A DNA stretch of 64,000 nt from an uncultured Actinomycetota bacterium (GCA_963733175.1 CAVTCL010000003.1:11640-75639); one strand, 5' to 3'; positions 7,188 through 56,552 are shown, counted from the stretch's first letter. Notes: generated by a model from the letters alone, not told the origin. A program made the numbers and translations.

Positions 7188-8100
7188 ATGGGGATCCTCC
7201 GCCTGTCGCACGTGGACGTGCGCGTGCCCGACCTCGACCTCGCCAGCGCCTACTACACCGAGGTCATGGGCCTGCTCGAGGTCGAGCGGACGGCCACCGA
7301 GGTGTTCCTCAAGTGCTGGGACGAGACCGACCACCACTCGGTCAAGCTGAGCTACGCCCCCCGGGTCGGCCTGGACCTGATCAGCTTCAAGGTCGAGGCC
7401 GACGAGGACCTGGCCGACCCTGGAGTCGCGGGTCGAGCGCTACGGCTTCCCGGTGCGCCGGGTCTCCCGCGGCGAGTCGGTCGGCCAGGGCGAGTCGATC
7501 CGCTTCGAGACCCCGTCGGGCCAGATGATGGAGCTGGTCCGCGAGGTCGAGCGGGTCGGCGGGCTGCTGCCCAAGCTCAACCCGCCCCCGTTCCCGCCCC
7601 AGGACCTGCGCGGCATCGCCCCGCCCCGCATCGACCACGTCCTGGTCACCGCCGAGGAGGTCGGCGAGGCCACCCGCTTCTACATGGAGGTGCTGGGGTT
7701 CCGGCTGACCGAGCAGCTGCTGGACGGCAACGGCCACCAGATCGGCGTCTGGATGGAGCGGTCCCACTCCCCCCACGACCTGGCCGTGGTCACCGGGGCC
7801 AACGGCGGGCTGCACCACTTCGCGTTCTGGCTGGACGACTGGGACCACGTGCGCAAGGCGGCCGACATCCTGGCCTACAACGGCGTCCAGATCGACGTCG
7901 GCCCGACCCGCCACGGCATCACCCGCGGCAACACCATCTACTTCTTCGACCCCCTGGGGACCCGCAACGAGGTGTTCACCGGCGGCTACCGGCCCGACCC
8001 GGACTTCCCCACCATCACCTGGACCGAGGACAACATCGGCCGGGCGATCTTCTACTACGAGGGCGACCTGAACGAGCGGTTCATGAAGGTCCACACCTGA
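7188..8100 (+). CDS. catechol 2,3-dioxygenase (extradiol, vicinal oxygen chelate), copy 1, with an apparent +1 frameshift
   Basis: MGILRLSHVDVRVPDLDLASAYYTEVMGLLE... continues in another frame from about 7420 (..GESIRFETPSGQMMELVREVERVGGLLP...HHFAFWLDDWDHV...); an extra C in gaccctggag at 7417-7420 relative to copy 2. Confidence 0.75.
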
Positions 8101-8101
8101 G

Positions 8102-9013
8102 ATGGGGATCCTGCGCCTGTCGCACGTCGAGGTCCGGGTGCCGGACCTGGAGCTGGCCACCGCCTACTACACCGAGGTGCTGGGGCTGCTGGAGACGGGC
8201 CGGGACGCCGAGCGGGTGTTCCTCAAGTGCTGGGACGAGCACGAGCACCACTCGGTGATCCTGCGCTATGCCGCCACCTACGGCCTGGAGCACATGGGCT
8301 TCAAGGTCGAGCACCCCGACGACCTGGAGCACTTCGAGCAGCGGGTCGAGAAGGACGGCGGCCAGGTGACCCGCCACGCCCGCGGCGAGCTCGCCCCCGG
8401 GCACGGCGAGGCCATCCGCTTCCAGACCCCGACCGGGCACCGCTGCGAGCTGGTCTGGGGGATGGAGAAGGTCGGCAACCTCCTCCCCCGCACCAACCCG
8501 CCGCCGCGGCCGCTGGGGCTGGTCGGGATCGCCCCGCCGCGCCTCGACCACATCTTCGTCACCGCCGAGGACGTCGACGAGGGGACCCGGTTCTTCCGCG
8601 AGGTGCTGGGGTTCCGGCTGACCGAGCAGATCCTGGCCGACGACGGCCACCAGCTCGCCACCTGGCTGGAGGTCTCCCACACCCCCCACGACATCGCCCT
8701 GGTCACCGGGCCCAACGGGGGCCTGCACCACTTCGCCTTCTGGCTCGACGACTGGAACGAGGTCCGCACCGCCGCCGACACCCTGGCCTACCACGGGGTG
8801 CCGATCGACGTCGGCCCGACCCGCCATGGGGCCACCCGCGGGTTCGCCGTCTACTTCTTCGACGCCGCCGGCAACCGCAACGAGGTGTTCACCGGCGGCT
8901 ACTGGGTCGACCCCGACCACGAGCCCGTCACCTGGACCGAGGCCGAGATGGGGCGGGCCATCTTCTACTACGAGGGCGCCGTCAACCAGCGGTTCCTGAC
9001 CGTGCACAGCTGA
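8102..9013 (+). CDS. catechol 2,3-dioxygenase, copy 2 (intact)
   Basis: 303 aa MGILRLSHVEVRVPDLELATAYYTEVLGLLE...LHHFAFWLDDWNEV...; full-length XylE/DmpB-type; tandem to copy 1. Confidence 0.9.
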   Translation: MGILRLSHVEVRVPDLELATAYYTEVLGLLETGRDAERVFLKCWDEHEHHSVILRYAATYGLEHMGFKVEHPDDLEHFEQRVEKDGGQVTRHARGELAPGHGEAIRFQTPTGHRCELVWGMEKVGNLLPRTNPPPRPLGLVGIAPPRLDHIFVTAEDVDEGTRFFREVLGFRLTEQILADDGHQLATWLEVSHTPHDIALVTGPNGGLHHFAFWLDDWNEVRTAADTLAYHGVPIDVGPTRHGATRGFAVYFFDAAGNRNEVFTGGYWVDPDHEPVTWTEAEMGRAIFYYEGAVNQRFLTVHS

Positions 9014-9340
9014 CAGGGAGGGGAGGCGAGATGGCCGAGGACCCGCCGCTGCCGCGGACCGAGCGGCCCGACGCGCCCCTGTACCTGGCCAGCTACCTGC
9101 GGCGGCGGGCCAGGGCGGCCGCTCCCGAGCCCGGCGGCGAGCCGGCACCGGCCGAGGCCGGGGCCGACGCGGCCACGCCGCTGTACCTGCGCCGGTTCCG
9201 GGAGCGGCGGGCCGACCCGGACGCCCCCGACGCCCCCCCGCCGGTCTGGAACGGCGAGCCGCTGGAGGTGACCAGGGCCTGGGCCGAGATCACCCGGACC
9301 AAGGAGATCGTCCCCGAGACCGGGCGCCGGCGCCTTCCGG

Positions 9341-10099
9341 GTGGCCGCCCAGGTCCACATCATCCGCCACGGCGAGACCCAGGGGTACTCGACCGAGAGC
9401 GGCCTCACCCCCCTCGGCGGCTGGCAGGCCCACCGGCGCGGCTTCGACCTGTCCAAGGGCATCCGCGACGGCGAGCAGGTCCGGATCGTCTGCGCCGACA
9501 CCAACCGGGCCCGCCAGACGGCCGAGCACCTCCACCGGGGCCTGCTCGACGGCCTCGACCTGTGGCGCCGCGACGCCAAGGTGGCCGAGCCGCGGCCCAT
9601 GGCCGAGTTCCGCAACTTCCAGGTCGCCACCCCCGACGGCCTGCGCGACGTGACCAGCGCCTTCCGCATGTACCACGCGCTGGCCGAGCGGTACGAGCGG
9701 GTCGCCCTCGGGGACCGGCCGATGTGGCTGGTCGAGGTGGACCGGTTCTGGAACGTCCAGCAGGGCGGGGCCGACCCCATCCACCACTGGATGACCATCC
9801 CCATGCTCCACTTCGAGCCGCCGGCGAGCTGCGTGCGCCGCTTCTGGGCCGGCTTCCAGCGCCTGGTCGACGAGGCCCCCGGGGCCCGGATCCTCTGCGC
9901 CACCCACTCCGGCCCCATCCGCGCGTTCGCCGCCTGGGCGGTCGGCTACGATCCCGGCGAGCCCTACAACACCGAGGAAGTGCTGGTGAAGCTGAAGGAG
10001 GGCGGCGGCGAGGCCCTGGTCGCCTACCGCAACCGGGTCCAGGAGGTCCAGGTCCCGCCCACCGGCGAGCGGCCCGACTGGTGGGAGGGCATCCGGTGA
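9341..10099 (+). CDS. histidine phosphatase family protein (phosphoglycerate mutase-like)
   Basis: VAAQVHIIRHGETQGYSTESGLTPLGGWQAH...CATHSGPIRAF; RHG catalytic motif; GTG start; stop overlaps the next gene (GTGA). Confidence 0.75.
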   Translation: MAAQVHIIRHGETQGYSTESGLTPLGGWQAHRRGFDLSKGIRDGEQVRIVCADTNRARQTAEHLHRGLLDGLDLWRRDAKVAEPRPMAEFRNFQVATPDGLRDVTSAFRMYHALAERYERVALGDRPMWLVEVDRFWNVQQGGADPIHHWMTIPMLHFEPPASCVRRFWAGFQRLVDEAPGARILCATHSGPIRAFAAWAVGYDPGEPYNTEEVLVKLKEGGGEALVAYRNRVQEVQVPPTGERPDWWEGIR

Positions 10100-11185
10100 G
10101 CTTCGTGCGCTGGCTGGACGGCTACGACCCGGCCGAGCGGGCCCGCCTGGGGGGCAAGAACGCCAGCCTGGGGGAGCTGCTGGCGGCCGGGCTGCCGGTG
10201 CCGCCCGGGTTCGCGGTCACCGTCGACGCCTACCACACCGTCCGCGGCCACCCCGAGGTCCGCCGGGCCGTCACCGGGCTGCTGGGCGAGGTCGACCTGG
10301 CCGACCCGGCCGCCCTGGAGGAGCTGAGCGCCGCCATCCGCCGCCGCATCGAGGAGGTCCCCCTGCACGACGGCGTGGCCGCCGAGGTCCGCGCCGCCTA
10401 CCAGGAGCTGTGCGAGCGCTGCGCCGGCGAGGCGGTGCCGGTGGCGGTGCGCTCCTCGGCCACCTCCGAGGACCTGCCCGACGCCAGCTTCGCCGGCGAG
10501 CACGACACCTACCTGTGGGTCCGCGGCCCCGACGACGTGCTCGCCCACCTCACCCGCTGCTGGTCGAGCCTGTTCACCGCCAGGGCGATCGCCTACCGGC
10601 GCGAGCGGGGCTACGACCACGACGTGGTCGCCATGTCGGTCGGGGTCCAGAAGATGGTCCGCCCCACCGCCTCGGGGGTGGCCTTCACCCTCAACCCCCG
10701 CGACGGCGACCGCTCCCAGGTCGCGGTCGAGTCCGCCTGGGGCTTCGGCGAGGGCATCGTGTCCGGCGAGGTCACCCCCGACAGCTTCCTGGTCGACAAG
10801 GTCCTTGGCGAGATCGTGCAGCGCACCATCTCCGACAAGGCGGTCGAGTACCGGCTGGGCGACGGCGACCGGGTCGAGCGGGCGCCGGTCGACCAGGACC
10901 AGGCGGACCGCCCCCAGCCTCACCGACGACCAGGTCAAGGCGGTGGCCCGCCTGGCCCGCCAGGCCGAGCGGCACTACCGCCGCCCCCAGGACGTGGAGT
11001 GGGCGCTGGACGGCGACCTGCCCGCCGGGCAGGCCGTGACCCTGCTCCAGGCCCGGCCGGAGACGGTCTGGAGCCGCAAGGCGGCCACGCCGGTCGCCAC
11101 CGCCGCCGACCCGATGGCCAGCATCGTGGCCACCCTCGTGTCGCCGCTGCACGCACGTGAAGCTTCGGACCAGCCCGGGCCCTGA
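10096..11185 (+). CDS. PEP-utilising enzyme N-terminal ATP/nucleotide-binding domain protein (PPDK_N; phenylphosphate synthase PpsB-like), copy 1, apparent frameshift
   Basis: VSFVRWLDGYDPAERARLGGKNASLGELL...VRSSATSEDLPDASFAGEHDTYLWV...MSVGVQKMVRPTASGVAFTLNP; the C-terminal ..LTDDQVKAVARLARQAERHYRRPQDVEWALDG...LLQARPETVWS is in another frame from about 10911 (C5 run). Confidence 0.75.
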
Positions 11186-11213
11186 CCCGGGCATCGACGG
11201 AAAGGACACGGCC

Positions 11214-13032
11214 ATGGCGGACCGGTTCCCGAGCCCCTTCGAGATCGAGACCCCGGCGGGGGCCGAGGGGTGGCAGGAGCTGTACACCTACTCGCTGCCG
11301 TTCTCGACCGACCGGCGCGAGTACGAGGACTCGATGTTCTGGTTCCAGGACGGGGTCCACTGGCCGGCGGTCATGAGCCCCTGGGACGCCACCTTCTACG
11401 AGTTCGCCCTGGCCTCGCTGTCGCAGTACAACACCCGCCACTACCTGATCCCGCCGGCCCTCGGGGTCGACTTCCGGGTGCTCAACGGCTACGCCTACCT
11501 GTCCCCGGTCGGGGTCGCCGACCCGGCCGAGATCGAGGCCAGGGTCCCCCACTTCCTGGAGCGGGCCGGCTTCTACTTCCAGAACTGGGCGACGCTGTAC
11601 GAGCAGTGGATGGGCAAGATCCGCGGGCTGATCGGCGAGATGGAGGCGCTCAGCTTCGAGCCGCTGCCCGACAAGGAGGACCTGGCCGTGGTCACCGAGG
11701 GCCGCGGCATGGGCTCGGGGTTCGAGCTCCAGCGCAGCTACCACCGGCTGGTCGACCTGGCCCTGCAGCTGTGGCAGTACCACTTCGAGTTCCTCAACCT
11801 CGGCTACGCCGCCTACCTGGACTTCTTCGGCTTCTGCAAGCAGGCCTTCCCCAGCATCCCCGACCTGGCCATCGCCAAGATGGTCGCCGGGGTCGAGGTC
11901 GACCTGTTCCAGCCCGACGAGGAGCTGAAGAAGCTGGCCCGCCTGGCCGTCGACTCCGGCGTCGGCGACGCCTTCGACCGGCCCTCGGCCGCCGAGGTGA
12001 TCGAGGCCCTGCGGGCCAGCGACGCCGGGCAGGCGTGGCTGTCGCAGTGGGAGGCGTCGGCCCAGCCGTGGTTCAACTTCTCGGCCGGCAGCGGCTTCTA
12101 CCACACCGACGAGGTGTGGCTGGAGCACCTGGAGATCCCGTTCGGGTTCGTGCGCGACTACATCGCCAAGCTCCGCGACGGGGTCGACATCAGCCGTCCC
12201 ATCGACGCCATCCGGGCCGAGCGCGACCGGATCGTCGGCGAGTACGGCGAGCTGCTGGCCACCGACGAGGACCGGGCCGCCTTCGAGCAGAAGCTCGGCC
12301 TGGCCCGGGTGGTGTTCCCCTATGTCGAGAACCACAACTTCTACGTCGAGCACTGGAGCCACTCGGTGCTGTGGCGCAAGATGCGCCAGCTCGGCGGCGT
12401 CCTGGCCAAGGAGGGCTTCTTCGGCGGCGAGGACGACATCTTCCTGCTCAAGCGGGACGAGGTCCCCGAGGCGCTGTGGGACTACTACAGCGCCTGGGCG
12501 GTCGGGACCCAGCCGCGCGGCCCGGCCTACTGGGGCCGGGAGCTGGAGCGGCGCCGGGGCATCCTGACCGCGCTGCGGTCCTGGTCGCCCCCGCCCGCCC
12601 TCGGCCGGCCGCCCGAGGTCGTGACCGAGCCGTTCACCATCATGCTCTGGGGCATCACCGGCGAGAGCGTCAAGCAGTGGCTGGGGGCCGGCGACGGCGC
12701 CGGCGACGGCACCCTCAAGGGCTTCGCCGCCTCCCCGGGGGTGGCCGAGGGGCCGGCCCGGGTGATCTTCTCGGCCGACCAGATCGGCGAGATCCAGGCG
12801 GGCGAGATCCTGGTCGCCCCCCTGACCGCGCCCGAGCTGGGCGCCCATCTTCGGCAAGATCGGGGCCACCGTGACCGACGTCGGCGGGATGATGGCCCAT
12901 GCCGCCATCGTCTGCCGCGAGTACGGGCTGCCGGCGGTGACCGGCACCGCCTTCGGGACCAAGACGATCAAGACCGGCCAGCGCATCCGCGTGGACGGCA
13001 ACCAGGGCACCGTCACCATCCTGGAACCGTAA
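11214..13032 (+). CDS. PEP-utilising enzyme with C-terminal mobile (swivel His) domain (PpsA-like), copy 1, apparent frameshift
   Basis: MADRFPSPFEIETPAGAEGWQELYTYSLPF...; C-terminal GFAASPGVAEGPARVIF...EILVAPLTAPE then a frame change at about 12845 to ..IFGKIGATVTDVGGMMAHAAIVCREYGLPAVTGT...VDGNQGTVTILEP; good Shine-Dalgarno (gaaagga) 8 nt upstream. Confidence 0.8.
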
Positions 13033-13044
13033 GGAGGCCGTTGC

Positions 13045-14295
13045 ATGCTGACCGCCGAGCAGAACGCCGAGCTGACCCGGGTCGGGCCGGGGACGCCCAT
13101 GGGCGAGCTCCTGCGCCGCTACTGGTACCCGGTGGCCTTCACCCGCCAGCTCGAGGAGTTCCCGGTGAAGCGGGTGCGGCTGCTCGGCGAGGACTGGGCC
13201 CTGTACAAGACCCCGGACGGGTCCTACGGGGTGGTCGAGGAGCACTGCCCCCACCGGCGGGCGTCGCTGGCCTACGGGGTGGTCGAGCCCGAGGGCCTGC
13301 GCTGCGGCTACCACGGCTGGCTGTTCGGCCGCGACGGGACCTGCCTGGACCAGCCGGCCGAGCTCGACAAGACCTCGTTCAAGGACCGGGTCCGGGCCCG
13401 GGCGGGCCGGGCCCAGGAGCTGGGCGGCATGGTCTGGGTGTACGTGGGCCCGGAGCCGGCGCCGCTGCTGCCCCGCTACGACGTGTACGTGATGGACGGG
13501 GTGCGCGACTTCGGCCACGCCCTGCTGCCCTGCAACTGGCTGCAGATCATGGAGAACGCCGTCGACCCCCACCATGTCGAGTGGCTGCACGGCCGCTACT
13601 TCGAGTTCCTCGGCAACCGGATGGGGTTCGAGGCCCCCAAGTCGTTCCAGCGCCGCCACGTCAAGGTCGCCTTCGACGAGTTCGACCACGGCATCATCAA
13701 GCGCCGGCTGCTGGAGGGCCACAGCGAGGACGACGACGACTGGGCCATCGGCCACCCGATGGTGTTCCCCTACTGCATGCGGGTCGGGGGCGCCGGCATC
13801 GAGCAGATGCAGATCCGGGTGCCGGTCGACGACACCACCACCTGGTTCGTGCTCTACACGGTCCACGCCCCCGAGGGGGCACCTGCCCCCGACCAGGCCG
13901 CCATCCCCGACTACGAGCTGCCCTGGCGCGACGAGCAGGGCAACCACATCGTCGACTACGTCGAGGGCCAGGACATCATGGCCTGGGTCACCCAGGGCCC
14001 GATCACCGACCGGACGGTCGAGCACCTCGGCAAGTCGGACGTGGGCATCGCCATGCTCCGCAAGCAGTTCAAGCAGCAGCTGGCCGCGGTGGCGGCCGGC
14101 CGCGACCCGATCGCCGTGGTCCGCGACCCGGCGGCCAACGCCCGCATCGACCTGCCGTGCGAGAAGAACAAGTTCGGCGCCGGAGCCGACTTCGCCCTCC
14201 AGTGGATGAACCTCGGCTTCACCCGGTACTCGCCGCAGCTCCAGGACCTGCTGCGCCTCCACACCGAGGCGGCCGAGGTCCGGGCCGATGCCTGA
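13045..14295 (+). CDS. Rieske non-heme iron aromatic-ring-hydroxylating oxygenase, alpha subunit
   Basis: CPHRRASLAYG...CGYHGW Rieske motif plus a mononuclear-iron domain (..NAVDPHHVEWLHG..); 416 aa; aaggagg Shine-Dalgarno; no beta subunit or reductase nearby. Confidence 0.85.
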   Translation: MLTAEQNAELTRVGPGTPMGELLRRYWYPVAFTRQLEEFPVKRVRLLGEDWALYKTPDGSYGVVEEHCPHRRASLAYGVVEPEGLRCGYHGWLFGRDGTCLDQPAELDKTSFKDRVRARAGRAQELGGMVWVYVGPEPAPLLPRYDVYVMDGVRDFGHALLPCNWLQIMENAVDPHHVEWLHGRYFEFLGNRMGFEAPKSFQRRHVKVAFDEFDHGIIKRRLLEGHSEDDDDWAIGHPMVFPYCMRVGGAGIEQMQIRVPVDDTTTWFVLYTVHAPEGAPAPDQAAIPDYELPWRDEQGNHIVDYVEGQDIMAWVTQGPITDRTVEHLGKSDVGIAMLRKQFKQQLAAVAAGRDPIAVVRDPAANARIDLPCEKNKFGAGADFALQWMNLGFTRYSPQLQDLLRLHTEAAEVRADA

Positions 14296-14551
14296 GGCGG
14301 ACCTGCTGCCGGAGGACCCGCACCCCCTGCCGCCGCCCACCGCCTGGTTCGCCCGCGACGCCGAGCGCCACCTGCTGGACGCCCCCCGCCACTGCCCCCG
14401 CTGCGGCGCCGCCATCGGCGGTCCCGACGGCCTGGTGGTCGAGTACTGGGCGGCCGACGACCGCGTCTTCTACTGCTGGTGCCGCTCCTGCGACTGGACC
14501 GGCACCGTGGTCCAGGTCGACCGCCACATCGGCCACGAGGCGGCCGACTAG
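14288..14551 (+). CDS. small zinc-ribbon-like hypothetical protein
   Basis: 87 aa with CPRCGAA...CWCRSC (two CxxC pairs); ATG overlaps the oxygenase stop (ATGCCTGA). Confidence 0.4.
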   Translation: MPEADLLPEDPHPLPPPTAWFARDAERHLLDAPRHCPRCGAAIGGPDGLVVEYWAADDRVFYCWCRSCDWTGTVVQVDRHIGHEAAD

Positions 14552-14809
14552 GGAGCGGGTCGGGTATCCGGGTTGAGGGGACTTGGATGGCCGGCGTCGG
14601 GTAGGGCCGGGGGCCGTCGGGTCCGGTGCGGGTGGAGCTGGGCAGCGGTCGGGTCGGGACTGGCACGGTCGGGCCCCATGCAGTTGCCTGGCACGGGGGT
14701 TGGCCTCGACCCGGCGGGCACGCTGCGACGACCCGGCTCGGTGGGAGAAGTTGTCCCCAGATGTGGTTGTGGTGCTTGCCTTGGAGTGAGGGGCTGATAG
14801 GTTGCTCCC

Positions 14810-16157
14810 ATGGACTCGAACACACATTCGACCAGCCAGCCGACCGGGACACCAGCGGGGTTGTCGGCGCTGGTCGCCGAGCTCCAAGAGCTGGCCGACC
14901 AGGACCCGGACCGGCTGGCCGACGGCGCCCGGGCCGAGCGGGTCATGGTGTTGCGACAGCTGGTCGAGCGCCTGGAAGGCCACTGGCTGGCCGAACTGGC
15001 CGCCTGGACGCCCGCGGGGCCGCCGGCGCCGAGCAGGGCGTCCAGGCCGGCTCCACCGCCGGCTGGCTGCGCCACCGGCTGCGCATGAGCGCCGGCACCG
15101 CCGCCAGCTTGCGTCCGGACCGCCCGGGCGCTGTACCGCGGCCCCCTGACCCGGCACCGGCCAGGCCCTGGCCGACGGGGAGCCATCTCCCCGGCCCACG
15201 CCCAGGTGCTGGCCGCCGGCACCCAGGATCTGCCCGACCAGGTCACCGCCGAGGCCGAACCGGTCCTGCTGGAGGCGGCCCGGCGGCTGGACCCACCCCG
15301 GCTGCGACGAGCCATCGCCCACCTGCGCCTGGTGGCCGACCCCGACGGCGCCGACGCACCAGGCCGAACGGCGCCACAGCAGCGGGGGCTGTGGCTGTCG
15401 CCGACCTGGGAGGGCATGGTCGCCGTCAACGGGCTGCTGGACCCCGAGGCCGGCCAGACCCTGCTGGCCGCCCTGGAGCCGTTGGCCCGCCCCACCAACG
15501 CCGACGACACCCGCAGCGGGTGGCCAGCGCCGGGCCGATGCCCTCACCGAGCTGGCCCGCCGCACCCTGGAAGCCGGCCAGCTCCCCCAGAGCGGTGGGG
15601 TCCGGCCCCAGCTGCTGGTGACCGTGGACCTGGACAGCCTCCTCGGCCACCCCGGACTGGGCTGGGCGGGGAGGCCGGCGGGCCCTGGCCGCTGGACCCC
15701 GAGACCTGCCGGCGGCTGGCCTGCGACGGCGCCGTCACCCGGGTGCTGGTCACCCGCCACCGGACCCACCACCACCAGGACCCCGGCGGCGATGGGCAGC
15801 CTGGCCGGCCGGCTCCAGGCGGCGGCGACCCGGCTCCCCCCGGCCCTTGGCGGCGCCCCCACCCAACCGCTGGAGGTCGGCCGCACCAGCCGGGTCGTCA
15901 CCGCCGCCCAACGGGCCGCCCTGGTCGTCCGCGACGGCGGCTGTGCGGTGCCCGGCTGCGACCGGCCCCCGGCCTGGTGCGAAGCCCACCATCTCCGCCA
16001 CTGGCTCCATGGCGGCCCCACCGACCTGGCCAACCTGGCCTTGCTGTGCCGGGCCCACCATCGCGCGGTCCACGAGGGCGGCTGGCGGCTCACCCGCGGC
16101 CCGGACGGCCGGCTGGCCGCCACCCCACCGCATCGAAAACACCGTGCCGCGGCCTGA
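14810..16157 (+). pseudogene. HNH endonuclease / DUF222 (13E12-repeat family) gene disrupted by several frameshifts
   Basis: Pieces are spread over three frames: ..LVAELQELADQDPDRLADGARAERVMVLRQLVERLEGHWLAELAAW / LDARGAAGAEQG..AGWLRHRLRMSAGTAASL / ..ISPAHAQVLAAGTQDLPDQVTAEAEPVLLEAARRLDPPRLRRAIAHLRLVADPDG / ..VRDGGCAVPGCDRPPAWCEAHHLRHWLHGGPTDLANLALLCRAHHRAVHEGGWRL (HNH motif). Confidence 0.65.
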
Positions 16158-16215
16158 CCCGGCGACCCGACAACCGCACCTGACCCGCGACCCCGCCCAT
16201 GACCGAACTCCGGCC

Positions 16216-16920: not shown

Positions 16921-17012
16921 CGGCCCATGTTCCCATGCGCGACCGGCGGGCGGTCGCGGCGGGCGCCGCACCCGTTGACTGGTGACGGGGCGAGGGGCAG
17001 ATTACGGCCGAC

Positions 17013-18421
17013 ATGGCGGTCATCGATCCAGGTGCCCTGCGCGCGCTCCGGCGTCGGTTCGGAGGGCGGGTCCTGGGTCCCGACGACCCCGGGTATCGCG
17101 ACGCGCGCCGCGTCTGGAACGCGATGGTGGACCGGCGTCCGGCGGTCATCGCCAGGTGCGGCAGCCGGGAGGACGTGGTCGCGGCCATCTCCTTCGCCCG
17201 CCAGACCGGGCTCGAGGTGGCGGTGCGCAGCGGCGGTCACAGCGTCTCGGGCCACTCCTCCACCGACGGCGGCATCGTCATCGACTTGACCGAGATGCGC
17301 ACCGTCACGGTGGACCCCGAGGCGCGCGTCGCCAGGGTGGACGGGGGTGCGCTCCTGTGCCACCTGGACGCCGGGACCCAGCGGTTCGGGCTGGCCACCA
17401 CCGGGGGATGGTGTCCCACACCGGCGTCGGCGGGCTGACCCTCGGCGGCGGGTACGGCTACCTGTCCCGGCGGTTCGGGCTGGCCTGCGACAACCTGCTC
17501 GCCGCCGAGGTGGTGCTGGCCGACGGGACGGTCACCGTGGCCAGCGACTCCAGCGAGCCCGACCTGTTCTGGGGGCTCCGGGGCGGCGGGGGCAACTTCG
17601 GGGTCGTCACCCGCTTCGAGTTCCGCCTGCACCCCGTCGGGCCGGCCGTCTTCTCCGCCGACCTCACCTTCGCGGCCGACGACGGCCCGGCGGTCCTGCG
17701 CGCCTTCCGCGACCTCGCCCTCGGGCGGCAGGACATCGTCAGCGGCGCCTACGCCGGCGCGGTGTCCCGGTCCTGGGCCGGGTTCGACGACCTGGTCGGG
17801 CGGCCGATCGTGAGCGTGGACTTCACGGTGACGGGGCCGGACCCCGGCGAGGGCGCGGCCGTCGTGGCGTCGCTGCGGAGCGTCGCCACCCCGCTCGCCG
17901 AGACCGTCGAGTCCCTGTCCTATGTCGAGCTCCAGTCCGCCGCCGGGGCGTCCTGGCGGCCGGGCACGTCGCGCTGCTACTGGAAGTCCTCGGTCTTCTC
18001 CGAGCTCCCCGACGGGCTGCTGGACGCCTTCGTCGAGCGTGGGGTGGCGTCGGCCGCCGTCTCCGAGGGCTGCGGCCTGGAGCTGGTCGCCGCCTTCGGT
18101 GGCGCCGTCTCGGAGGTGGGAGAGGACGACACCGCGTTCAGCCACCGCCACGCCCAGGTCGACTTCCTCGCCCTCGGGCGGTGGGACGACCCGGCCGACG
18201 ACGAGCTCCACATCGAGCTGTGCCGCCGGAACTGGGCGGCGCTGGCCCGGTTCTCCGACGCCGGCGTGTACGTCAACAACCTGGGGCAGGAGGACCGGGT
18301 GCGCGAGGCCTACGGCGAGGCGAAGTACCGGCGGCTGGTCGCCCTCAAGGACCGGTTCGACCCGGACAACCTGTTCCACCTCAACGCGAACATCCGGCCG
18401 TCCGCGGGCGCTCGCGGCTAG
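17013..18421 (+). CDS. FAD-binding oxidoreductase (VAO/PCMH / BBE-like), copy 1, apparent frameshift
   Basis: ..VIARCGSREDVVAAISFARQTGLEVAVRSGGHSVSGHS.. then a frame change at the G5 run (about 17405) to ..VSHTGVGGLTLGGGYGYLSRRFGLACDNLLAAEVVLADG...GGGGNFGVVTRFEF...; C-terminal BBE-like domain. Confidence 0.75.
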
Positions 18422-22397: not shown

Positions 22398-22406
22398 CTG
22401 GGCCTC

Positions 22407-22700: not shown

Positions 22701-22723
22701 GCCGCTCCTCCCTCTCGTGCGTG

Positions 22724-23549: not shown

Positions 23550-23562
23550 CGGGCACCCCGCT

Positions 23563-35266: not shown

Positions 35267-36707
35267 TCACGTGCCGCCGACCAGGCCGCGCTTGCGCCAC
35301 TTCTCGAAGATCGGCTTGATCTGGGCCTCGGCCTGGGCCACGGCCTCCTTGGGCGAGGCCTCGCCGCGGGCCGCGCTGGCGAACATGTTCGGGATCACGA
35401 AGGTCCCGAACACCTCGCCGATGGCGGTGTTGGACGGCCCCGGGTAGCCGATGTTGGTGCTCCAGTCGGTGGCGTCCTTGAGGAAGGCCAGCTTGTCGGC
35501 CGGGTTGGCCCCGTAGGGGTCCTTGGCCAGCCAGCCGTCGAGCTGGGGCACCCGCTCGGCCCAGGCCGGGAAGTCGTACAGCTTGGAGTGCCAGGTGGCC
35601 GAGGCGAAGTTCTCGGTGTAGTAGAGCAGGAACTCCTTGGCCGCGTCGGCGTTGGCCGCGTGCTTGGGGATGATCCAGTTGTAGAGCACGTGCTGGGCGG
35701 CGCGGGCGTCGGCGGGCCCGCGCAGCGCCGGGACGAAGCCGACGTCGTTGGCCACGTCGGGGTTGGCCCCCTGGGCGGTCCGCCAGGCCGAGATCGAGTT
35801 GAGGATGTAGGAGAGCTTGCCCGGCGACCAGGCCCTGGTTGTTGGAGGCGGCGTTCCAGGAGAAGACCTCGTCGGTCATGGCCTGCTTGAACAGCTTGGT
35901 CATGAACTCGACGGCGGCCACGGTCTCCTCGGAGTTGATCACCACCTGCTCGTTCTCGTCCTGGACCGAGGCGCCGTAGGACCACATCAGGGCCCGGCCG
36001 GCCATGTTGGAGTCGATCTCCTGGGACATGCCGATGCCGAGCTGGGTCCCCTTGCTCTTCTTGATCTCGGCGCCGCCCTGCAGGAGCTCGTCCCAGGTGG
36101 TGGGGCCCTTGGGCAGGCCCACAGCCGTCCACAGCGAGGTCCGGTAGTCGCCGGGGTCGGGCACCCAGCCAGGCGAGTAGGAGTAGAAGCGGCCGGTGGC
36201 CGGGTTGAAGCTGGACTGCTTGCTCAGCTCCAGCTGCTGGCCCCAGCGCTTGGTGGCCTCGTCGGTGATGTCCTTGAGGTCGAGGACGCTGGGCTCGAAC
36301 TGCGACAGCGGGGCGATGTACTGGATCACGTCATGACCCTGGCCGGCCTGGATCTCGGCCGCGATCCGGGTCGGGATCTGGGCGTTGTCGATGTGGTCGA
36401 CGGTCACGTTGACCCCGACCTTCTTGCCCCAGTCCTGGGCGAAGGGACGGAACCACTGGTCGTGGCTGGGCACGAAGTGGCTCCAGAGCAGGATCTTGAG
36501 GTCACCCGAGAGCTTGGTCCTCGGCTCGGTGAAGCTGACCGACGGCGCCTGGCCGGCCGCCTCCTCTCCGCCGCCGGGGCCGCCGCCGCCCGGTTCGCTG
36601 GTGCAGGCGGCGATGGCCGCCCCCATGCCCGCGACCCCCACCGCCCGCAGGAACTGTCGTCGGTCGGGTGTCCACAACGAGTGTGATCGGGATCCGCTGT
36701 CGGCCAT
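35267..36707 (-). CDS. ABC transporter substrate-binding lipoprotein (sugar), apparent frameshift
   Basis: RRQFLRAVGVAGMGAAIAAC Tat/lipobox signal; the frame changes at about 35820 (extra base in gcccggc); the C-terminal ..ANDVGFVPALRGP...AVAQAEAQIKPIFEKW is in a second frame. Confidence 0.75.
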
Positions 36708-39654: not shown

Positions 39655-41461
39655 TCACTTGGCGTCGGCGTAGCAGTCGACCACGGCCACGCTCAGGGGG
39701 AACCGGACGGTGGTGTCGCCGAACACCAGGCGGCGGCTCTCCTCGGCGGCGTCGCCCACCGCGGCCGCCACCCGGTCGGCGTCCTGGCGCTGGCAGTGCA
39801 CCACCACCTCGTCGTGCTGGAAGAACACCAGGTGCGGACCGGTGGGCCGGTCGGGCGGGCCGAGCCCCTCGGGCCGGTCGGCCAGGCGGCGGCGGACGGC
39901 GGCCAGCAGCACCAGCGCCCAGTCGGCGGCGCTTGCCTGGACCACGAAGTTCCGGGTGAACCGCCCCCGGTCCCTGGCCGCCCGCCGCCGCGCCCCGGCC
40001 TCGGCATCGGCCTCGGCGGCGGGCTCGGGCGCGGCTGGCCTGGAGGTGGCGGTCAGCCAGGCGGTGGAGGGGGGTGGGCAGGTCCTGCCCAGGCGCGAGC
40101 GGACCAGGGCGCCCTCCTCGCCGGCCCTGGCCGCCGCCTCCACGTAGCCGACGGCGGCCGGGAAGCGCCGCCGCAGCACCGTCATCAGGGAGCCGACGTC
40201 GCCGCCGTACATGGCGGCCAGCAGGGCGGTCTTGGCCCGCGCCCGGTCGCCCGCGAAGGCGTCGGCGGCCAGGGCGGCGTAGAGGTCGCCGCCGGCCGCC
40301 GCCCGGGCCAGCCCGTCGTCGCCGGACAGGGCGGCCAGCACCCGCGGCTCGAGCTGGCTGGCGTCGGCGACCACGAAGGTCCAGCCCGGGTCGGCCACCA
40401 CCGCCCGGCGCAGGGCGTGGGGGATCTGGAGGGCGCCGCCGCCGCGCGTCGCCCAGCGGCCCGACACGACCCCGCCGGGCACGTACTCGGGCCGGAACCG
40501 GCCGCCCGCGACCCAGGCGTCCAGCCAGGTCCAGCCGTGGGCGGCGTGCAGCCGCGACAGCTCCTTGTAGGCCAGCAGCAGCGGCACGGCCGGGTGGTCG
40601 ACGGCGCGCAGGACATGGGACCGGGTCGAGGGCAGCGGCGTCCCGGCGTTGGCGAAGGCCCGCAGCACCTGGGCGGGCGAGTCGGGGTTGAGCGGCTGGC
40701 CGCCGAAGGCGGCGCCGATCTGGGCGGCCAGCTCGCCCAGCCGCCGCGGCGCGGTCCCGGCCCGGGGCCGGGGTCCGAGCAGCTCGCTGAGGATGGCGTC
40801 GTGCACCTCCGGCCGCCAGGGCAGCCCGGCCGCCCCCATCTCCCCCGCGGCCAGCGCCCCCGCCGACTCGGCCGCCACCAGCAGCTCAAGCCCCCGACGC
40901 TCCGGGGGACCGCCCGGCGGTCCCCCGGACCCTCCGGACTCTCCGGGGGACCACCCCGGCGGTCCCCCGGACCCCCCCGGGCCAGGCGGCGTTGCTGGTC
41001 GGCGTGGACGGCCACCACCCCCTCCAGCAGCTCGGCGGGGTCGGGCAGCCCGAGCAGGTGGTGGTCGAACAGGGCCGGCTGGCCGGCCGCCGGGCCCCAG
41101 CCGTCGGGGGCCGGCCGCCGGAGCCCCTGGCGGTGTCGTCGGGGACCGGCAGGCCGCGCAGGCGGGCCCAGGCGGCCGGGAACGAGCGCGGCTCGCCCCA
41201 GCGGCCGTCGGCGGCCAGGAGGATCCCCTCGGCCAGGGCCAGGTCGTGGCAGCGCTCGACCCGGACCCCGGCCCGCAGCAGCCCCGGGTACACCTCGGCG
41301 GTCGCCGCCCAGACCCAGCGTGGCCGCCCCGCCCGCTCCCGCTCGGCCACGGCCGCGGCCAGGTCCCGGACCGGCTCCGGCGGCCCCTGGGGCGTGCCGT
41401 CGTCGGCGACGGCCTGCAGCAGTCCCCCACCGTCCGCATCCACCACCACGGCGACCCGCAT
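39655..41461 (-). CDS. family-A (PolA-like) DNA polymerase domain protein with a degenerate N-terminal exonuclease-like region, apparent frameshifts
   Basis: C-terminal ..RARAKTALLAAMYGG.. (motif B-like) and ..VFFQHDEVVVHC.. (motif C); the N-terminal MRVAVVVDADGGGLLQAV... is in another frame; a Gly/Pro-rich repeat linker is encoded by a 41-bp tandem repeat. Confidence 0.65.
40902..40985. repeat. about 41-bp imperfect tandem direct repeat (2 copies) inside the polymerase-like coding region
   Basis: ccgggggaccgcccggcggtcccccggaccctccggactct / ccgggggaccaccccggcggtcccccggacccccccgggcc; encodes the ..GGPPGWSPGESGGSGGPPGGPP.. linker. Confidence 0.5.
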
Positions 41462-41493: not shown

Positions 41494-41709
41494 TCAGCGC
41501 TTGAGGATGACGAGCACCTGGCCGGGGACGATCTCGTCGGGGTCGGGGACGATGTCGCGGTTGAGCCGGGCGATCTCGGGCCAGCGGTTGGCGTCGCCCA
41601 GCTTCTTGGCGGCGATCCCCGACAGGGTGTCGCCCTTCTTGACCTTGTAGAGTCCGGTCGGCGGCTTGATCGGCGCGGCCCCGGGCCAGGGCCTCGTGGC
41701 CGAGGACAT
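41494..41709 (-). CDS. LysM domain protein
   Basis: ..LYKVKKGDTLSGIAAKKLGDANRWPEIARLNRDIVPDPDEIVPGQVLVI; LysM PF01476. Confidence 0.7.
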   Translation of the reverse strand: MSSATRPWPGAAPIKPPTGLYKVKKGDTLSGIAAKKLGDANRWPEIARLNRDIVPDPDEIVPGQVLVILKR

Positions 41710-41887
41710 GGCGGTTGTCCAGGTCGATCAGGGGCTGGAAGACCGGCTGCACGGCCCGCTCGTCCAGGACCCGGCGGAAGTCCTCCACCGTCGTCGGGGA
41801 GGGGTGGGAGACTCCAGGCGTCGTCATGGTGGTCTGATCGACCACCGGCGAGCCGAGGTTGAGCGACCCGACCACAAGGAGCGCGCG

Positions 41888-42662: not shown

Positions 42663-43799
42663 GCGTCCCGGGCGACCAGGAACCAGGTGACCAGCTCGCC
42701 CTTGCCCTTGACCTGGACCGGTCCCCGCCGCTCGAAGCGGTAGCCGTCCCGCAGCCGCCGGTAGGTCCGCTCGGTCACCTGGATGCAGCCGACCACCCCG
42801 CGCGACTCCATGCGGCTGGCCGTGTTCACGGTGTCGCCCCACAGGTCGTAGCTGAACTTGGTGGTGCCGATCACCCCGGCCACCACCGGGCCGGTGTCGA
42901 TGCCGATGCGCACGGCCAGGGGCTGGCCGGCCGGGTCGAGGTGGCGGGGGACCTCCTCGCGCACGGCCAGGGCCATCTCGGCCACCGCCTCGGCATGGTC
43001 GGGCCGGGGCTCGGGCAGCCCACCGACGGCCATGTAGGCATCCCCGATGGTCTTGATCTTCTCCAGCCCGTGGCGCTCGGCCAGCCGGTCGAGGGCCGAG
43101 AACAGGCCGTCGAGGACCTGCACCACCTGCTCCGGCGTGGTCTCCTGGCTGCGCCGGGTGAAGTCCACCAGGTCGGCGAAGAGCACGGTGACCTCCGGAG
43201 AACCCGTCGGCGATGACCGCCTCGCCCTGCTTGAGCCGGGCCGCGATCGGGGACGGCAGGACGTTCAGCAGCAGCCGCTCGGAGCGGTGCTGCTCGGCCA
43301 GCAGCAGGCGGCGGCCGCGCACCGCCTCCCCGAACAGCAGCACGGCGGCGAACATGGCGGCGCTCTGCATGGTCCCGCTGACCAGCGGCGCCAGCGGCTC
43401 GTCCCCCTCCCAGAGCTGGTAGAGGAGGTAGACGAGCGGCGCGAGCACGAACCAGACGACGATCGCCAGGGTCCAGCGCCGGTAGCCGGCGATCCAGGCG
43501 GTGGCCACCGCCACCGACAGCGGCACCGCGGGGAGGATGCCGGGATAGTTGGTCAGGCCGTAGAGCTGGAGGGCCGCCGCCGAGGCCAGCAGCACGGCCA
43601 GGGGCCAGCGCCGCCGGAACAGCACCAGGGCGGCGACGGTCAGCCCCAGGGTGTAGGCGCCGGGGGCGCGCCCGTCGCCGCGGGTCGAGGCCACGTCGAT
43701 CGCGGCCGTCACCGCCACGGCAAGGGCCAGGGCCAGCCCCGCGTCCACCACCGGCGCGGGCACCTGGCGCAGCCGCGACCACCAGGATGTCCCAGCCAT
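42650..43799 (-). CDS. membrane-anchored class III adenylate/guanylate cyclase, apparent frameshift
   Basis: The N-terminus has about six TM helices; C-terminal ..VTVLFADLVDFTRRSQ...KTIGDAYMAVGG...IGIDTGPVVAGVIG..WGDTVNTASRMES catalytic motifs; frame change at about 43195. Confidence 0.8.
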
Positions 43800-44825: not shown

Positions 44826-50804
<5,979 letters not shown>

Positions 50805-52664: not shown

Positions 52665-52693
52665 GGTCGGTCATCGGCGCCTCCTTCCCGGTC

Positions 52694-54039
52694 TCAGGAG
52701 GTGAAGATCGACTTCTTCTGGCTCTCCAGGCTCTTGGTCAGGCCGTCGACGTCGTCGGGGTTCTTGAGGAAGGTCTGGAGGCCGGGGATCATGACCGTCG
52801 AGGCGAAGTCGGGCCGGGTGTCGCGGTCCAGGAACTGGGCGATCGACTCGGCCGAGCCGATGAACTCGACCGCCTTCTTCTGCAGCCCGGTGTAGGCGCT
52901 GGTGTCGGCCTCGCTGCTGGCCCCGATGACGGTGGGGTCGGCCTTGAGGAGCGATGTTCTCGGCCTCGGCGGTGCCGAGGTACTTGAGGAGCTGCCTTGG
53001 CGCCCTCCTCGTTCTTGGGCTCGGCGCGCATCATGAAGCCGTCGATCGGGGCCTCGATCGCGCCCGTGCCGATGGCCGGGTCGATCTCGGGGAAGGCGAA
53101 GAAGTCGAGGTCGTCCTGCTCGGCGCCTCTCGGGGAACTGCTGGCCGACGAACATGCCCAGCAGGTACATGCCCGACTCCTTCTTCTGCAGCGACTGGGC
53201 CGCCTCCTGCCACTCGCGCCCCAGGGCGTCCTCCTGGTGGTAGGGCAGCAGCCCCCGCCAGGTGTCGAACACCTTCTTGACCTGCGGCGAGTCCCAGGCC
53301 TCCTTGCCGGCCATCAGGTCGACGTGGAACTGGTAGCCGTTGATGCGCAGGTTGAGCTGGTCGAAGGTGCCCATCGCCGGCCAGCCGTCCTTGTCGGCGA
53401 AGGCGATCGGGACCAGGCCGTCCTTCTGCATCTGCTTGGACAGGGTGACCAGCTCGTCGAGGGTCGTCGGGGGGCTCGTAGCCCTTCTCCTCCCAGACCG
53501 ACTTGCGGTAGAACAGCGCCCACGGGTAGGTGGTCAGGGGCACGAAGTACTGCTTGCCGTCGTCGCCGGTGGAGGCCTGCCTTCAGCGCCTCGCTCATGC
53601 CGGAGATGCCGCCCCAGACGTCGCTGATGTCGCCGGCCAGGCCCTGGGCGGCGAAGAACCGCATCCGGTAGCCGGCGAACCAGGTGAACACGTCGTCGGG
53701 GTTGCCCTGCAGGTAGTTGTTGATGTTCTCCTGGAAGGTCTCGTGGTCGACGGTGTTGACCTTCACGGTCAGCCCCGAGGCCGCCAGCATGTCGGCGTAG
53801 GCCTTCTTGGGCACCTCGTCGGACTGGTTGGAGCCGAAGGTCACCTCCTGGGAGGCGCTGCCGCCACCACCGCCGCCGTCGTCGCCGCCACCGCAGGCCG
53901 CGAGCAGGCTGGAGAGCGACAGGGCCGCCCCGGCGCCCAGGGTGCCCTTGAGGAAGCCGCGACGGCTGAGGCCGGCCGCCGCCACCGACGGCGGGATGAG
54001 ACGGGCCAGGTACTCGGACTCCGACCGGGGACGGGACAT
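52694..54039 (-). CDS. ABC transporter substrate-binding lipoprotein (sugar), multiple apparent frameshifts
   Basis: MSRPRSESEYLARLIPPSVAAAGLSRRGFLKGTLGAGAALSLSSLLAACGG.. Tat/lipobox; the mature-domain pieces lie in three frames (ORFs 53314.., 53031.., 52694..). Confidence 0.7.
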
Positions 54040-54047
54040 GTCGCCTC

Positions 54048-54923: not shown

Positions 54924-55030
54924 CTCTGCCCTCCCACCGGGGACAGTCCACCTGTCCGCCCATTGCGAACGCTTACGCGAGGTATGTCAAGTCTTCGCTG
55001 TCGTTCGCATTCCGCAAGTGCGGTGGCGGG

Positions 55031-56434
55031 TCAGGCGGGCCCGGGGGCCGGGGGGATGTTCTGGTTGCGGCGGAACAGGTTGCCCGGGTCGTAGCGGCGC
55101 TTGACCTCGACCAGCCGGTCCCAGGTGGGGCCGGGGTAGGCCTCGCGGACCCGCTCGGGCCCCTCGTCGCTGAGGAAGTTGACGTAGACGCCGGGGCGGC
55201 TGTCCCGGCGCAGCGCCGCCGCGAAGCCGTCGGCCCAGGCATGGTGGACGGGCCGGTCGGCGGCGTGCTCGTAGATGCAGCCGACCGCGGCCATGAACCT
55301 CCGGTCGCGGTGGGCGAAGGCGGTCGCCTCGGCCGGCACCCGGGCCATGGCCCCGCCGAGCACCCGCAGCTGGGCCACGGCCATGGGGGCGGTCGAGGCC
55401 CGCAGGTGCTCGACCACGGCCTCGGCGGCGGCGCGGTCGAAGCGGTCCAGGAACAGCGACCGGGCCGACTCCTCGACCACCTCGATCTCCTCGGCGGGCT
55501 CGAACAGGCCGGCGTACGGCATGGGCTGGACCATGTCGGCGATCGGCTCGGCCAGGGCCCGGAACGGGGCCAGCGCCCGCTCCCCGGCCTCGGCCTCGCC
55601 GGCATAGGCCAGCAGGGCCATCACCACCAGCTGGCCGTGGGCCTGCTCCGGCACGGACGGCATCGGCGGGGCGACCATGACGTTGGCGATGCCCGACAGC
55701 TCCTCGGGCGCCGCCTCGGCCGCGGCCACCAGCCCCTCGATCACCTCGGGGCTGCCCGGCAGCAGCAGCATCCCGCCCACGATCGAGGGCAGCTCGTGCA
55801 GCCGGAACCTGAGCCGGGTGGCCACCCCGAAGTTCCCCCCACCACCCCGGATCGCCCAGAACAGCTCCGGGTGCTGGTCGTCATCGACCGCCAGGACCTG
55901 GCCGTCGGCGGTCACCAGCTCGGCCGCGAGCAGGCTGTCGATGGTCAGCCCGTGCTTGCGGACCAGGAACCCGATCCCGCCGCCCAGGGTGAGCCCGCCG
56001 ATCCCGACCGAGCCGGTGTCGCCGAACCCGGTGGCCAGCCCGTGGGCGCCGACGGCGGCGGTGTAGGCGCCGGCGGTCAGCCCGCCCTGGGCCCAGGCGG
56101 TGCGTCCCTCCAGGTCGATGTCCAGGGCCGTCATCGCCGACAGGTCGAGCACGATCCCACCCTCGCTGGTGCTGTGCCCGGCCAGGCTGTGGCCGCCGCC
56201 GCGCACCGCCAGCTCCACCCCGGTGTCGGCGGCCAGCGCCACGACCCGCGCCACCTCGGTCGGCGTCTGGACGGCCGCACCACGGCCGCCGGCCGCCGGT
56301 CGAACTTGCCGTAGAAGACCTTGCGGGCCTGGTCGTAGCCGGGGTCGCCGGGGGCGACCACCCGCCCGTCGAAGCGGTCGCGGAGCCGGGGGATCGAGAT
56401 GGAGGTGGTGGACGAGAAGGACAAGAGAGCACTC
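55031..56434 (-). CDS. FAD-binding oxidoreductase (VAO/PCMH / BBE-like), copy 2, apparent frameshift
   Basis: ..VVALAADTGVELAVRGGGHSLAGHSTSEGGIVLDLS...GGLTLGGGIGFLVRKHGLTIDSLLAAELVTADG..GGGGNFGVATRLRF..; the N-terminal ..IPRLRDRFDGRVVAPGDPGYDQARKVFYGKFDRRPAAVV is in another frame; putative TTG start. Confidence 0.7.
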   Translation of the reverse strand, partial: ECSLVLLVHHLHLDPPAPRPLRRAGGRPRRPRLRPGPQGLLRQVRPAAGGRGAAVQTPTEVARVVALAADTGVELAVRGGGHSLAGHSTSEGGIVLDLSAMTALDIDLEGRTAWAQGGLTAGAYTAAVGAHGLATGFGDTGSVGIGGLTLGGGIGFLVRKHGLTIDSLLAAELVTADGQVLAVDDDQHPELFWAIRGGGGNFGVATRLRFRLHELPSIVGGMLLLPGSPEVIEGLVAAAEAAPEELSGIANVMVAPPMPSVPEQAHGQLVVMALLAYAGEAEAGERALAPFRALAEPIADMVQPMPYAGLFEPAEEIEVVEESARSLFLDRFDRAAAEAVVEHLRASTAPMAVAQLRVLGGAMARVPAEATAFAHRDRRFMAAVGCIYEHAADRPVHHAWADGFAAALRRDSRPGVYVNFLSDEGPERVREAYPGPTWDRLVEVKRRYDPGNLFRRNQNIPPAPGPA

Positions 56435-56552
56435 CCTGTTGCGCGTGGCTCGCTGATCTCCAACAGAAAACGGTACCCGCCCCCCACGACAGCCGCGCCC
56501 GCTCCGCCGCCGACGGTTAGGATCGGGCCGAACTCAGCCAACGTCGCATCCT

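Follow-up and report, generated by a model that had tools for sequence, protein, structure and literature searches.

The locus described here raises the question of whether its many interrupted genes are broken in the organism or only in the assembled sequence. It is a stretch of 64,000 nucleotides from an uncultured Actinomycetota bacterium (GCA_963733175.1, CAVTCL010000003.1:11640-75639), called the window below; positions are counted from its first base, and (+) or (-) gives the strand. A sequence-only reading had listed at least 18 genes interrupted by single-base insertions or deletions (indels), and had ascribed these to homopolymer errors of sequencing or assembly rather than to biology. 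Here, we place the lesions to the base by comparison with related contigs. We will show that about 45 small indels break the frames of at least 24 genes in the region from 4.7 to 57 kb, and we will argue that the origin of these indels is almost certainly technical. Homopolymer miscalling, on the other hand, does not explain them. The inserted bases point instead to a consensus artefact, in which mixed strains would have been collapsed during long-read metagenome assembly; we put the probability of this at roughly 0.8. Three features are exceptions to the small-indel artefact: a PolA-like gene contains a palindromic insert, another junction marks a 2.9-kb deletion, and the shifts in the beta-galactosidase gene lie in a hypervariable linker.

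Data and methods

Since the window has a G+C content of 74.5%, long open frames occur in all six frames and lists of open reading frames are uninformative. The coding frame was derived from the G+C content of third codon positions (GC3) by means of a seven-state, six-frame Viterbi path in which in-frame stops were forbidden. Consecutive segments on the same strand that lacked a terminal stop were joined into chains, and the translations of these were scanned against Pfam. Lesions were placed to the base by aligning the window with related contigs.

Three sets of relatives were used. Exact-protein look-ups yielded four ENA metagenome contigs, L001 (ERZ25039541), L002 (ERZ25039469), L003 (ERZ25039591) and L004 (ERZ25039576), as well as L005-L012, which are short-read contigs (SPAdes NODE_, JGI, Logan). 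The third set consists of JGI contigs with 80-96% identity, found in a metagenome scan with a chimeric query of the unresolved junction regions. L001-L004 are named 'contig_N' in the style of Flye and their ENA accessions are neighbours, and the label "long-read-style" used for them below comes from the names only. For most of 1.8-14.6 kb, 18.4-38 kb and 39.6-64 kb, at least one of these relatives is available for comparison. A scan of the GTDB species representatives with the alpha-galactosidase returned no close genome, the top match being Micromonospora at 62-63% amino-acid identity, and these matches served for frame confirmation at the protein level only. Exact-protein look-ups of 13045-14295, 43851-44741, 41967-42662 and 38262-38729 gave no match, probably because of different start codons or nearby frameshifts.

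Two sources of error were dealt with. The Viterbi path placed 12828-13045 on the minus strand and took 41670-41934 for a single minus-strand gene; both assignments were wrong and were corrected on the basis of translation and relatives. In addition, blastn with lenient gap costs bridged non-homologous stretches (25.5-28.5 kb for L004 and 58.0-58.5 kb for L001), and the events found there were discarded.

Frame breaks in the window

The frame breaks are borne out by the Viterbi path, by Pfam and by the relatives. The path contains 21 chains that need more than one frame. Single Pfam domains run across the junctions in catechol 2,3-dioxygenase copy 1 (C23O-1), PpsB-like-1 (PPDK_N), the DUF222/HNH endonuclease, both FAD oxidases, the a/b hydrolase, the monooxygenase, both solute-binding proteins (SBP-1 and SBP-2) and both galactosidases. 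For the two galactosidases, tblastn with homologues from 80 genome loci also gives high-scoring segment pairs (HSPs) in two or three adjacent frames. The junctions at 6378, 11152, 21815, 22076 and 22731 were found to be ordinary gene junctions and not shifts, the last three being the borders between a PpsA-like gene, a EutN gene and two bacterial microcompartment (BMC) shell genes.

The earlier count of at least 18 interrupted genes is hence exceeded; the hydratase (5440), the histidine phosphatase (9325) and the DUF222/HNH gene (15523-15792) had been absent from that list. The positions it gave lie mostly 0-20 nt from the base-resolved sites. Its density of about one lesion per 2-3 kb needs revision, the measured value being about one per 1.2 kb overall, and the lesions are clumped, with an index of dispersion of 2.2 and no event in 32 of 54 one-kb bins.

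At nearly every frame junction, the window has one surplus base compared to its relatives. The base-resolved events comprise 33 insertions and 5 one-base deletions (17403-17408, 46388, 51627, 52620 and 56718), an imbalance with p = 4e-6 in a sign test. Examples, with the inserted base in brackets, are 9325 GGG[C]GCC, 10901 AGG[A]CC, 12834 CCC[G]AGC, 22894 GCG[A]CCT, 25882 GAT[G]CAG, 27252 GAG[T]CAC, 41906 GAG[C]AAC, 51442 ATG[A]TAC and 52950 AGG[A]GCG.

Evidence for a technical origin

We now consider whether the cells themselves carry these lesions. The short-read and JGI contigs L005-L008 and L010-L012, at 95-98% identity, are without the extra bases of the window at 9325, 22894 and 23583. 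No frame-breaking coding indel could be attributed to these contigs, and their few length differences lie at or near gene ends. The insertions at 7417, 50546, 51442, 51536, 52950, 52994, 53465 and 53576 are missing in 4-7 of the 4-7 covering relatives, and that at 50363 in five of six; the exception is L001, which has both 50363 and 50546 in the local alignment.

The long-read-style contigs, in turn, have lesions of their own. L004 has about 25 indels of both signs, and L002 has six deletions in the phosphodiester glycosidase (NAGPA) gene. In L001, FAD oxidase-2 is broken by an extra G (position 5311 of that contig), and in L003, SBP-1 is broken by an extra C at window position 36313. When the same frame-switch test is applied to all contigs, the window has 0.48 frameshift candidates per kb and L001-L004 have 0.14-1.08/kb; the density is 0 in most short-read or JGI contigs and at most 0.22/kb in all of them but the short L007, L104 and L130.

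Once the extra bases are deleted, the hydrolase, the monooxygenase, SBP-2, both permeases and LigB-1 match the lengths of their relatives, and these six corrected genes contain no internal stop in about 2,100 codons that carried about 25 frameshifts. Only 3 of the approximately 38 base-resolved indels are found in another assembly, in each case a long-read-style contig: 22894 is common to the window and L004, and 50363 and 50546 are common to the window and L001. All three are missing in the short-read or JGI contigs (for 50363 and 50546, in 4-6 JGI contigs), and they may be either a recurrent artefact or real variants. The privacy of the lesions, their counterparts in sister contigs, the lack of nonsense codons and the excess of insertions all support the part of the sequence-only reading that had preferred technical error to biology.

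Nature of the inserted bases

The proposed mechanism is a different matter. It had been stated that nearly all indels sit in runs of 3-7 G or C, but of the 33 insertions, just 3 lie inside runs of at least 3 when placed as strictly as possible, and just 8 when placed as generously as possible. With 23% expected for random insertion, this amounts to no enrichment beyond base composition (binomial p = 0.84). The inserted base is unlike both of its neighbours in 21-26 of the 33 cases, compared to 51.5% for random insertion. Runs of at least three G or C occur 51 times per kb, such that 74% of all positions are at most 10 nt and 85% at most 15 nt away from one. A run is thus nearly always near any claimed site, and an association at the positional precision of the claims is at chance level.

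A few sites do agree with homopolymer-length miscalls in uncorrected long reads: the loss beside G5 at 17403-17407, the changes from G3 to G4 at 26602 and from G2 to G3 at 26105, and those from CC to CCC at 35820 and 7417. However, the C5 run at 10911-10915, to which the indel of PpsB-like-1 had been assigned, is not the site; an extra A at 10898-10901 is found instead. Homopolymer errors in nanopore consensus sequences are, furthermore, mostly deletions and not insertions. As a general explanation, homopolymer miscalling is refuted by the base-level alignment, and we consider it scarcely credible that it lies behind the lesions as a whole. The inserted bases are mostly found outside homopolymers, at columns that are polymorphic between strains.

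This polymorphism has a characteristic form. At 12 of the 16 sites that are covered by two or more relatives, the base that must be removed from the window for a match depends on the relative, i.e. the window contains both alleles side by side. Simulated random insertions give this both-allele signature in 12.5% of cases window-wide and in 17.5% within 150 nt of the sites, with resulting p values of 1.6e-8 and 7e-7, respectively. The relatives have either C or G at 50363 (window TA[CG]GGC), 12834 (CC[CG]AGC) and 23583 (CAT[CG]GGG), either G or C at 52994 (CT[GC]CTT) and 50546, and either AT or TA at 51442, where the window has ATA (G[ATA]C). The other columns of this kind are 52950, 53465, 53576, 10900, 51615 and 7417. 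The events are also concentrated where the mismatch between the window and L003 is 4-14% (25.2-28.2 kb), with nearly none where it is below 1% (Spearman 0.55, p = 0.002).

Two other patterns were set aside. When the window is examined as a possible fine-scale mosaic of two groups of relatives, it alternates between them at intervals of 2.4 informative sites. The division into groups is arbitrary, however, and the pattern could be due to ordinary phylogeny; it was not used. A CCWGG methylation-motif context was noticed near several insertions. Against a systematic error of context, however, stands the fact that contigs with identical context do not have most of the events in common.

Proposed collapse of strains and the alternatives

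In the mechanism that we propose, reads of at least two co-occurring strains of one actinobacterial population would have been collapsed to one consensus. At substitutions between the strains, the consensus step would often have kept both alleles in tandem, yielding a spurious extra base and, rarely, a lost one. The genes would then be frameshifted in silico, yet intact in the cells. That the platform was a long-read one is suggested by the 'contig_N' names and the neighbouring ENA accessions of the four sister contigs with similar defects, and we infer that the doubling of alleles took place at the consensus or polishing step.

A number of observations weigh against this proposal. Four of the 16 multi-relative sites (5440, 9325, 22894 and 51536) are without the both-allele signature. 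The comparison of alleles covers these 16 sites, many sites in the cluster having L003 as their single relative. The alleles are seen in contigs of other samples and not demonstrably in the same sample. The indels at 22894, 50363 and 50546 recur in a second assembly, as a purely stochastic artefact would not; to explain them, one would have to assume a systematic error, a real mutation, or an allele pair that is the same in the two samples. Finally, dN/dS of the corrected cluster genes is 0.27-0.57, and lower values would in our judgement be expected for conserved genes. The high values would fit a chimeric consensus and are not diagnostic.

Some of these points speak for plain stochastic read errors that survived a low-coverage long-read consensus with no strain mixture. 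It is known that low nanopore coverage leaves indels behind (PMC9262707). In the present case they are private to each long-read-style contig, their density varies between 0.14 and 1.08/kb as differences in coverage would give, and four of the 16 sites are without the signature. We nevertheless regard this possibility as unlikely, because it leaves the two alleles at the 12 other sites (p about 1e-6) unexplained, and likewise the restriction of the events to strain-divergent stretches of a single contig and the three recurrent indels. A recent, massive pseudogenisation of catabolic and sugar-uptake genes, with all indels real, is very unlikely. Its proponents could cite the recurrence of 22894, 50363 and 50546 in a second assembly at 96% identity, and the apparently real structural variation nearby (the 2.9-kb deletion at 41677-41686, the 408-nt deletion at 57032 and the palindromic insert in the PolA-like gene). 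The window also resembles decaying bacterial genomes in having many frame-disrupting lesions in non-essential catabolic and transport genes. It differs from them in its lack of nonsense codons, in its 33:5 bias toward insertions, bacterial genome decay being generally deletion-biased, and in that its lesions do not occur in near-identical short-read sequences. Moreover, the GC3 coding signal is undiminished, one 381-aa gene has up to seven independent lesions, each long-read-style contig would have "decayed" at different sites while no frame-breaking indel is attributable to the short-read ones, and there is no known mutational mechanism for the both-allele signature.

Such a mechanism would be provided if the tandem insertions were real and had arisen when diverged strains living together recombined, for example through aberrant processing of heteroduplex mismatches that would leave both bases in. 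This would be an undescribed mutational footprint of inter-strain recombination and would also account for the three recurrent indels, yet we judge it extremely improbable. Programmed ribosomal frameshifting or transcriptional slippage, by which the proteins would be restored in vivo, can practically be dismissed. Nothing specific favours it beyond the full length of the frame-corrected proteins. The shift sites are not conserved, the relatives read through in one frame, and a single gene has as many as seven sites. Inspection by eye of the printed site contexts revealed neither slippery A/T heptamers nor long A/T runs, though no dedicated scan was made.

The proposed collapsed-strain artefact can be compared to two known assembly problems. 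Nanopore metagenome assemblies retain residual indels when coverage is less than about 40x, and microdiversity affects metagenome-assembled genomes (PMC9262707). Protein truncation by indels in uncorrected long-read assemblies is addressed by the IDEEL test and by tools for frameshift correction such as proovframe (bioRxiv 10.1101/2021.08.23.457338), and is discussed in PMC9262707. The similarity to the window lies in the many genes that are split by 1-nt indels and give full-length proteins once the frames are joined, and in the occurrence of the defect in long-read-style and not in short-read contigs. The difference is that homopolymer-length errors dominate in the classical case, according to the accessible parts of PMC9262707 and PMC8812927, while the window mostly has inserted bases unlike their neighbours at strain-polymorphic columns. 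A large nanopore soil project, Microflora Danica, used Flye with one round of Medaka (PMC12313526); the ERZ accessions could not be linked to it. The other problem is that of strain phasing. As described in the accessible parts of the publications, Strainberry (PMC8302730) and Strainy (bioRxiv 10.1101/2023.01.31.526521) separate haplotypes from long reads, and the window would share with their subject the single contig for several haplotypes and the defects where haplotypes diverge. Retention of both alleles in tandem as an extra base was not found in those parts of the descriptions, and we infer the signature from the window itself.

Sites between 1 and 24 kb

The individual sites are described in the following in order of position, and where the sequence-only reading had expected a lesion, its position is given as "expected". 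The 2-keto-4-pentenoate hydratase-like gene at 4739-5542, with a Pfam FAA_hydrolase match, has an extra T at 5440..5442 (-) and switches frame at 5442/5443. This T is missing from all three covering JGI relatives according to BLAST clustering, two of which (L102 and L106) are shown base by base. In C23O-1 (7184-8098), the extra base is at 7417..7420 (+; expected at 7417), where the window reads GACCCTGG and the relatives GACC-TCG or GCGC-TGG. The Diox-like_N match (residues 63-120) crosses the junction at residue 78, the paralogue alignment agrees, and none of the seven relatives has the surplus base. The histidine-phosphatase gene (9008-10094) has its frame switch at 9335 and an extra C at 9325 (+), which is missing from the JGI contigs L011 (98% identity), L012 (97%) and L102.

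In PpsB-like-1, PPDK_N (residues 17-334) is continuous across the junction at residue 274. The extra A at 10898..10901 (+) is missing from L004, L106 and L107, the base to be removed differing by relative. PpsA-like-1 has an extra G at 12834 (+; expected near 12845), placed by translation and alignment just upstream of the PEP-utilizers domain, the window having CG where relatives have C or G. The DUF222/HNH endonuclease gene shows three frame switches in the Viterbi path, at about 15523, 15660 and 15792 (+), which for want of a close relative are not base-resolved; the DUF222 match (residues 1-187) crosses two of the junctions. In FAD oxidase-1, one base is lost at 17403..17408 (+), and FAD_binding_4 spans the junction, with ...GLATTGG in one frame joined to MVSHTGVGG in the next. 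The expected lesion in the G5 run at 17403-17407 is the only one to fit the homopolymer description well, and with the loss directly beside the run it is plausibly such a site.

The extra A in LigB-2, at 22894 (-; expected near 22895), is the one common to long-read-style L004 and is missing in the short-read contigs L005, L006 and L008. The start of this gene is variable in length, and the window has two extra bases there, at 23551 (-). In LigB-1, one base is added at 23583/23584 (-; expected at about 23570-23660), in the last codons and beside the ATGA stop/start overlap, where relatives have C or G and the window CG. The insertion, which puts the stop out of frame, is missing from all four relatives, and the corrected protein has 358 aa and is 99.7% identical to that of L003.

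Sites between 25 and 44 kb

The flavin monooxygenase, for which several lesions were expected, has seven extra bases relative to L003, at 25882, 26105, 26274, 26374, 26588, 26602 and 26619 (-). Matches to Pyr_redox_2/3 cross the junctions, that of Pyr_redox_2 (residues 321-633) extending over four of them. The L003 copy is intact at 381 aa, and the corrected gene of the window has no internal stop. The same is true of the corrected a/b hydrolase gene, which has three extra bases at 26662, 27195 and 27252 (-; expected near 26660 and twice at about 27215-27270), the first of them just ahead of the stop. The LuxR/TPR regulator has two insertions, one at 28069 or 28076 and one at 28212 (-; expected at about 28020-28150), and its sole relative L003 is itself frameshifted here. 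In SBP-1, the comparison with L003 gives an extra C at 35820..35822 (-), exactly as expected, turning CC into CCC within SBP_bac_1.

The PolA-like gene (DNA_pol_A) is in three frames at 40893..41117 (-), and tblastn with the protein of the JGI relative L129 gives three HSPs in three frames. The frame break that had been claimed thus stands, but it is not a homopolymer indel. It consists of two tandem 41-nt palindromic units and a second shift at about 41100-41117. The units, at 40893-40974, are each a near-perfect GC-rich palindrome (TCCGGGGGACCRCC / GGCGGTCCCCCGGA) and make the window about 65 nt longer than L129; they may represent either the insertion of a small hairpin repeat or an error of assembly.

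Beside the VOC/glyoxalase gene, at 41677..41686 (-), there is a junction that is not a small indel but a deletion of about 2.9 kb relative to L099. The missing stretch comprises the greater part of an EAL-domain gene and of a gene with LysM at its end, and what is left is the N-terminus of the former fused to the C-terminus of the latter. The VOC gene itself has an extra C in codon 7-8, at 41906 (+; expected near 41925), on the basis of alignment and translation against L099 and of Pfam on the corrected N-terminus. In the adenylate cyclase gene, an extra C at 43195..43196 (-; CT[C]CGG), exactly where it was expected (about 43195), lies between the membrane part and the catalytic domain, with L098 as the one relative.

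Sites between 46 and 57 kb

The beta-galactosidase gene has lost one base at 46388-46390 and has a net gain of one within 46563-46614 (-), as seen from tblastn HSPs in two frames and from alignment of several relatives. The shifts expected at 46380-46640 are thus present, but they cancel out and both lie inside a hypervariable, repeat-bearing linker between domains 4 and 5, such that they are different in kind from the other lesions. The linker (46400-46620) is hypervariable in length among L093, L097, L098 and L099, with a motif CTGTGGACAACC...GGGCTACGCTCCCCCACCGGGGGACC that is kept, and L097 has additional tandem repeats. Since no Rfam family matched anywhere in the window, the motif is not a known RNA. 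L097, a JGI contig with 96% identity, has C4 at about 1910 of its own sequence (window 48262) where the window has C5, and switches frame in its own beta-galactosidase gene; this homopolymer-type lesion belongs to the relative and not to the window.

In the alpha-galactosidase, one base is added at 50363/50364 (-; relatives C or G, window CG; expected near 50375) and another at 50546-50551 (-; relatives G or C, window GC; expected near 50560). Glyco_hydro_36N spans both junctions, and tblastn gives three frames. The remaining frame breaks that had been claimed, in both galactoside permeases, SBP-2, FAD oxidase-2 and NAGPA, were all found. ABC permease 2 has one extra base each at 51442 (ATA in the window, alleles AT and TA), 51536 and 51615, and one lost base at 51627 (-). 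These lesions are missing in all six relatives, and the L001 gene is intact at 305 aa. ABC permease 1 has lost one base in its N-terminal part at 52620 (-), its one relative L001 having an intact 316-aa gene.

SBP-2 has five frame-shifting insertions, at 52950, 52994, 53115-53128, 53465 and 53576 (-). SBP_bac_1 (residues 94-365) crosses the junctions at 160, 199, 312 and 354. The four single-base insertions are missing in all four relatives, and 53115-53128 amounts to +4 compared to two of them and +1 compared to the other two. The L001 gene is intact at 445 aa, and the corrected gene of the window has no internal stop. FAD oxidase-2 has two extra T, 7 nt apart, at 56260..56268 (-). NAGPA has lost one base at 56718 (+; CCC[G]GCC). 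The same gene has a 408-nt in-frame deletion at 57032 relative to L001, which is probably a real strain difference since L002 has it too.

Gene content

The genes at 19928-24630 (-) include two LigB-type dioxygenases, two BMC-H shell genes, one EutN/BMC-P gene and a PpsA-like gene. A second PpsB/PpsA-like pair, a Rieske oxygenase, a third PPDK_N gene and two copies of catechol 2,3-dioxygenase are found at 7184-14295 (+) and 31294-32303 (-). Taken together, these stretches look like an aromatic-catabolism microcompartment locus, whose core gene order is kept in L004-L010, and which presumably resembles the 'ARO' type of published BMC catalogues. The region 1-5542 (-) holds a complete-looking operon for the lower pathway of meta-cleavage, with aldehyde dehydrogenase, HAD hydrolase, Rieske ferredoxin, 4-oxalocrotonate tautomerase, two FAA-hydrolase-type hydratase/decarboxylase genes, DmpG-type aldolase and acetaldehyde dehydrogenase. 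At 14549-18437 there are the DUF222/HNH endonuclease, a possible methyltransferase (from reading of the translation only) and FAD oxidase-1. As only part of this stretch occurs in L004, it suggests a strain-variable island around a mobile HNH gene.

Implications

There is no biological novelty in the interruptions. The evidence is that the genes are intact, and the gene models are to be repaired and not called pseudogenes. Most of the errors would escape polishing or filtering directed at homopolymers, and haplotype-aware polishing or accurate reads are needed. An extra base that unites both alleles of a single-nucleotide polymorphism may serve as a diagnostic of this class of error in microdiverse long-read metagenome assemblies. 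For the organism, a soil actinobacterium, annotation of the window at face value would turn about 24 genes into fragments or pseudogenes and would lead to its metabolism being misjudged, the genes at stake being those of the microcompartment-type locus for aromatic compounds, the meta-cleavage pathway and the galactoside-uptake operon.

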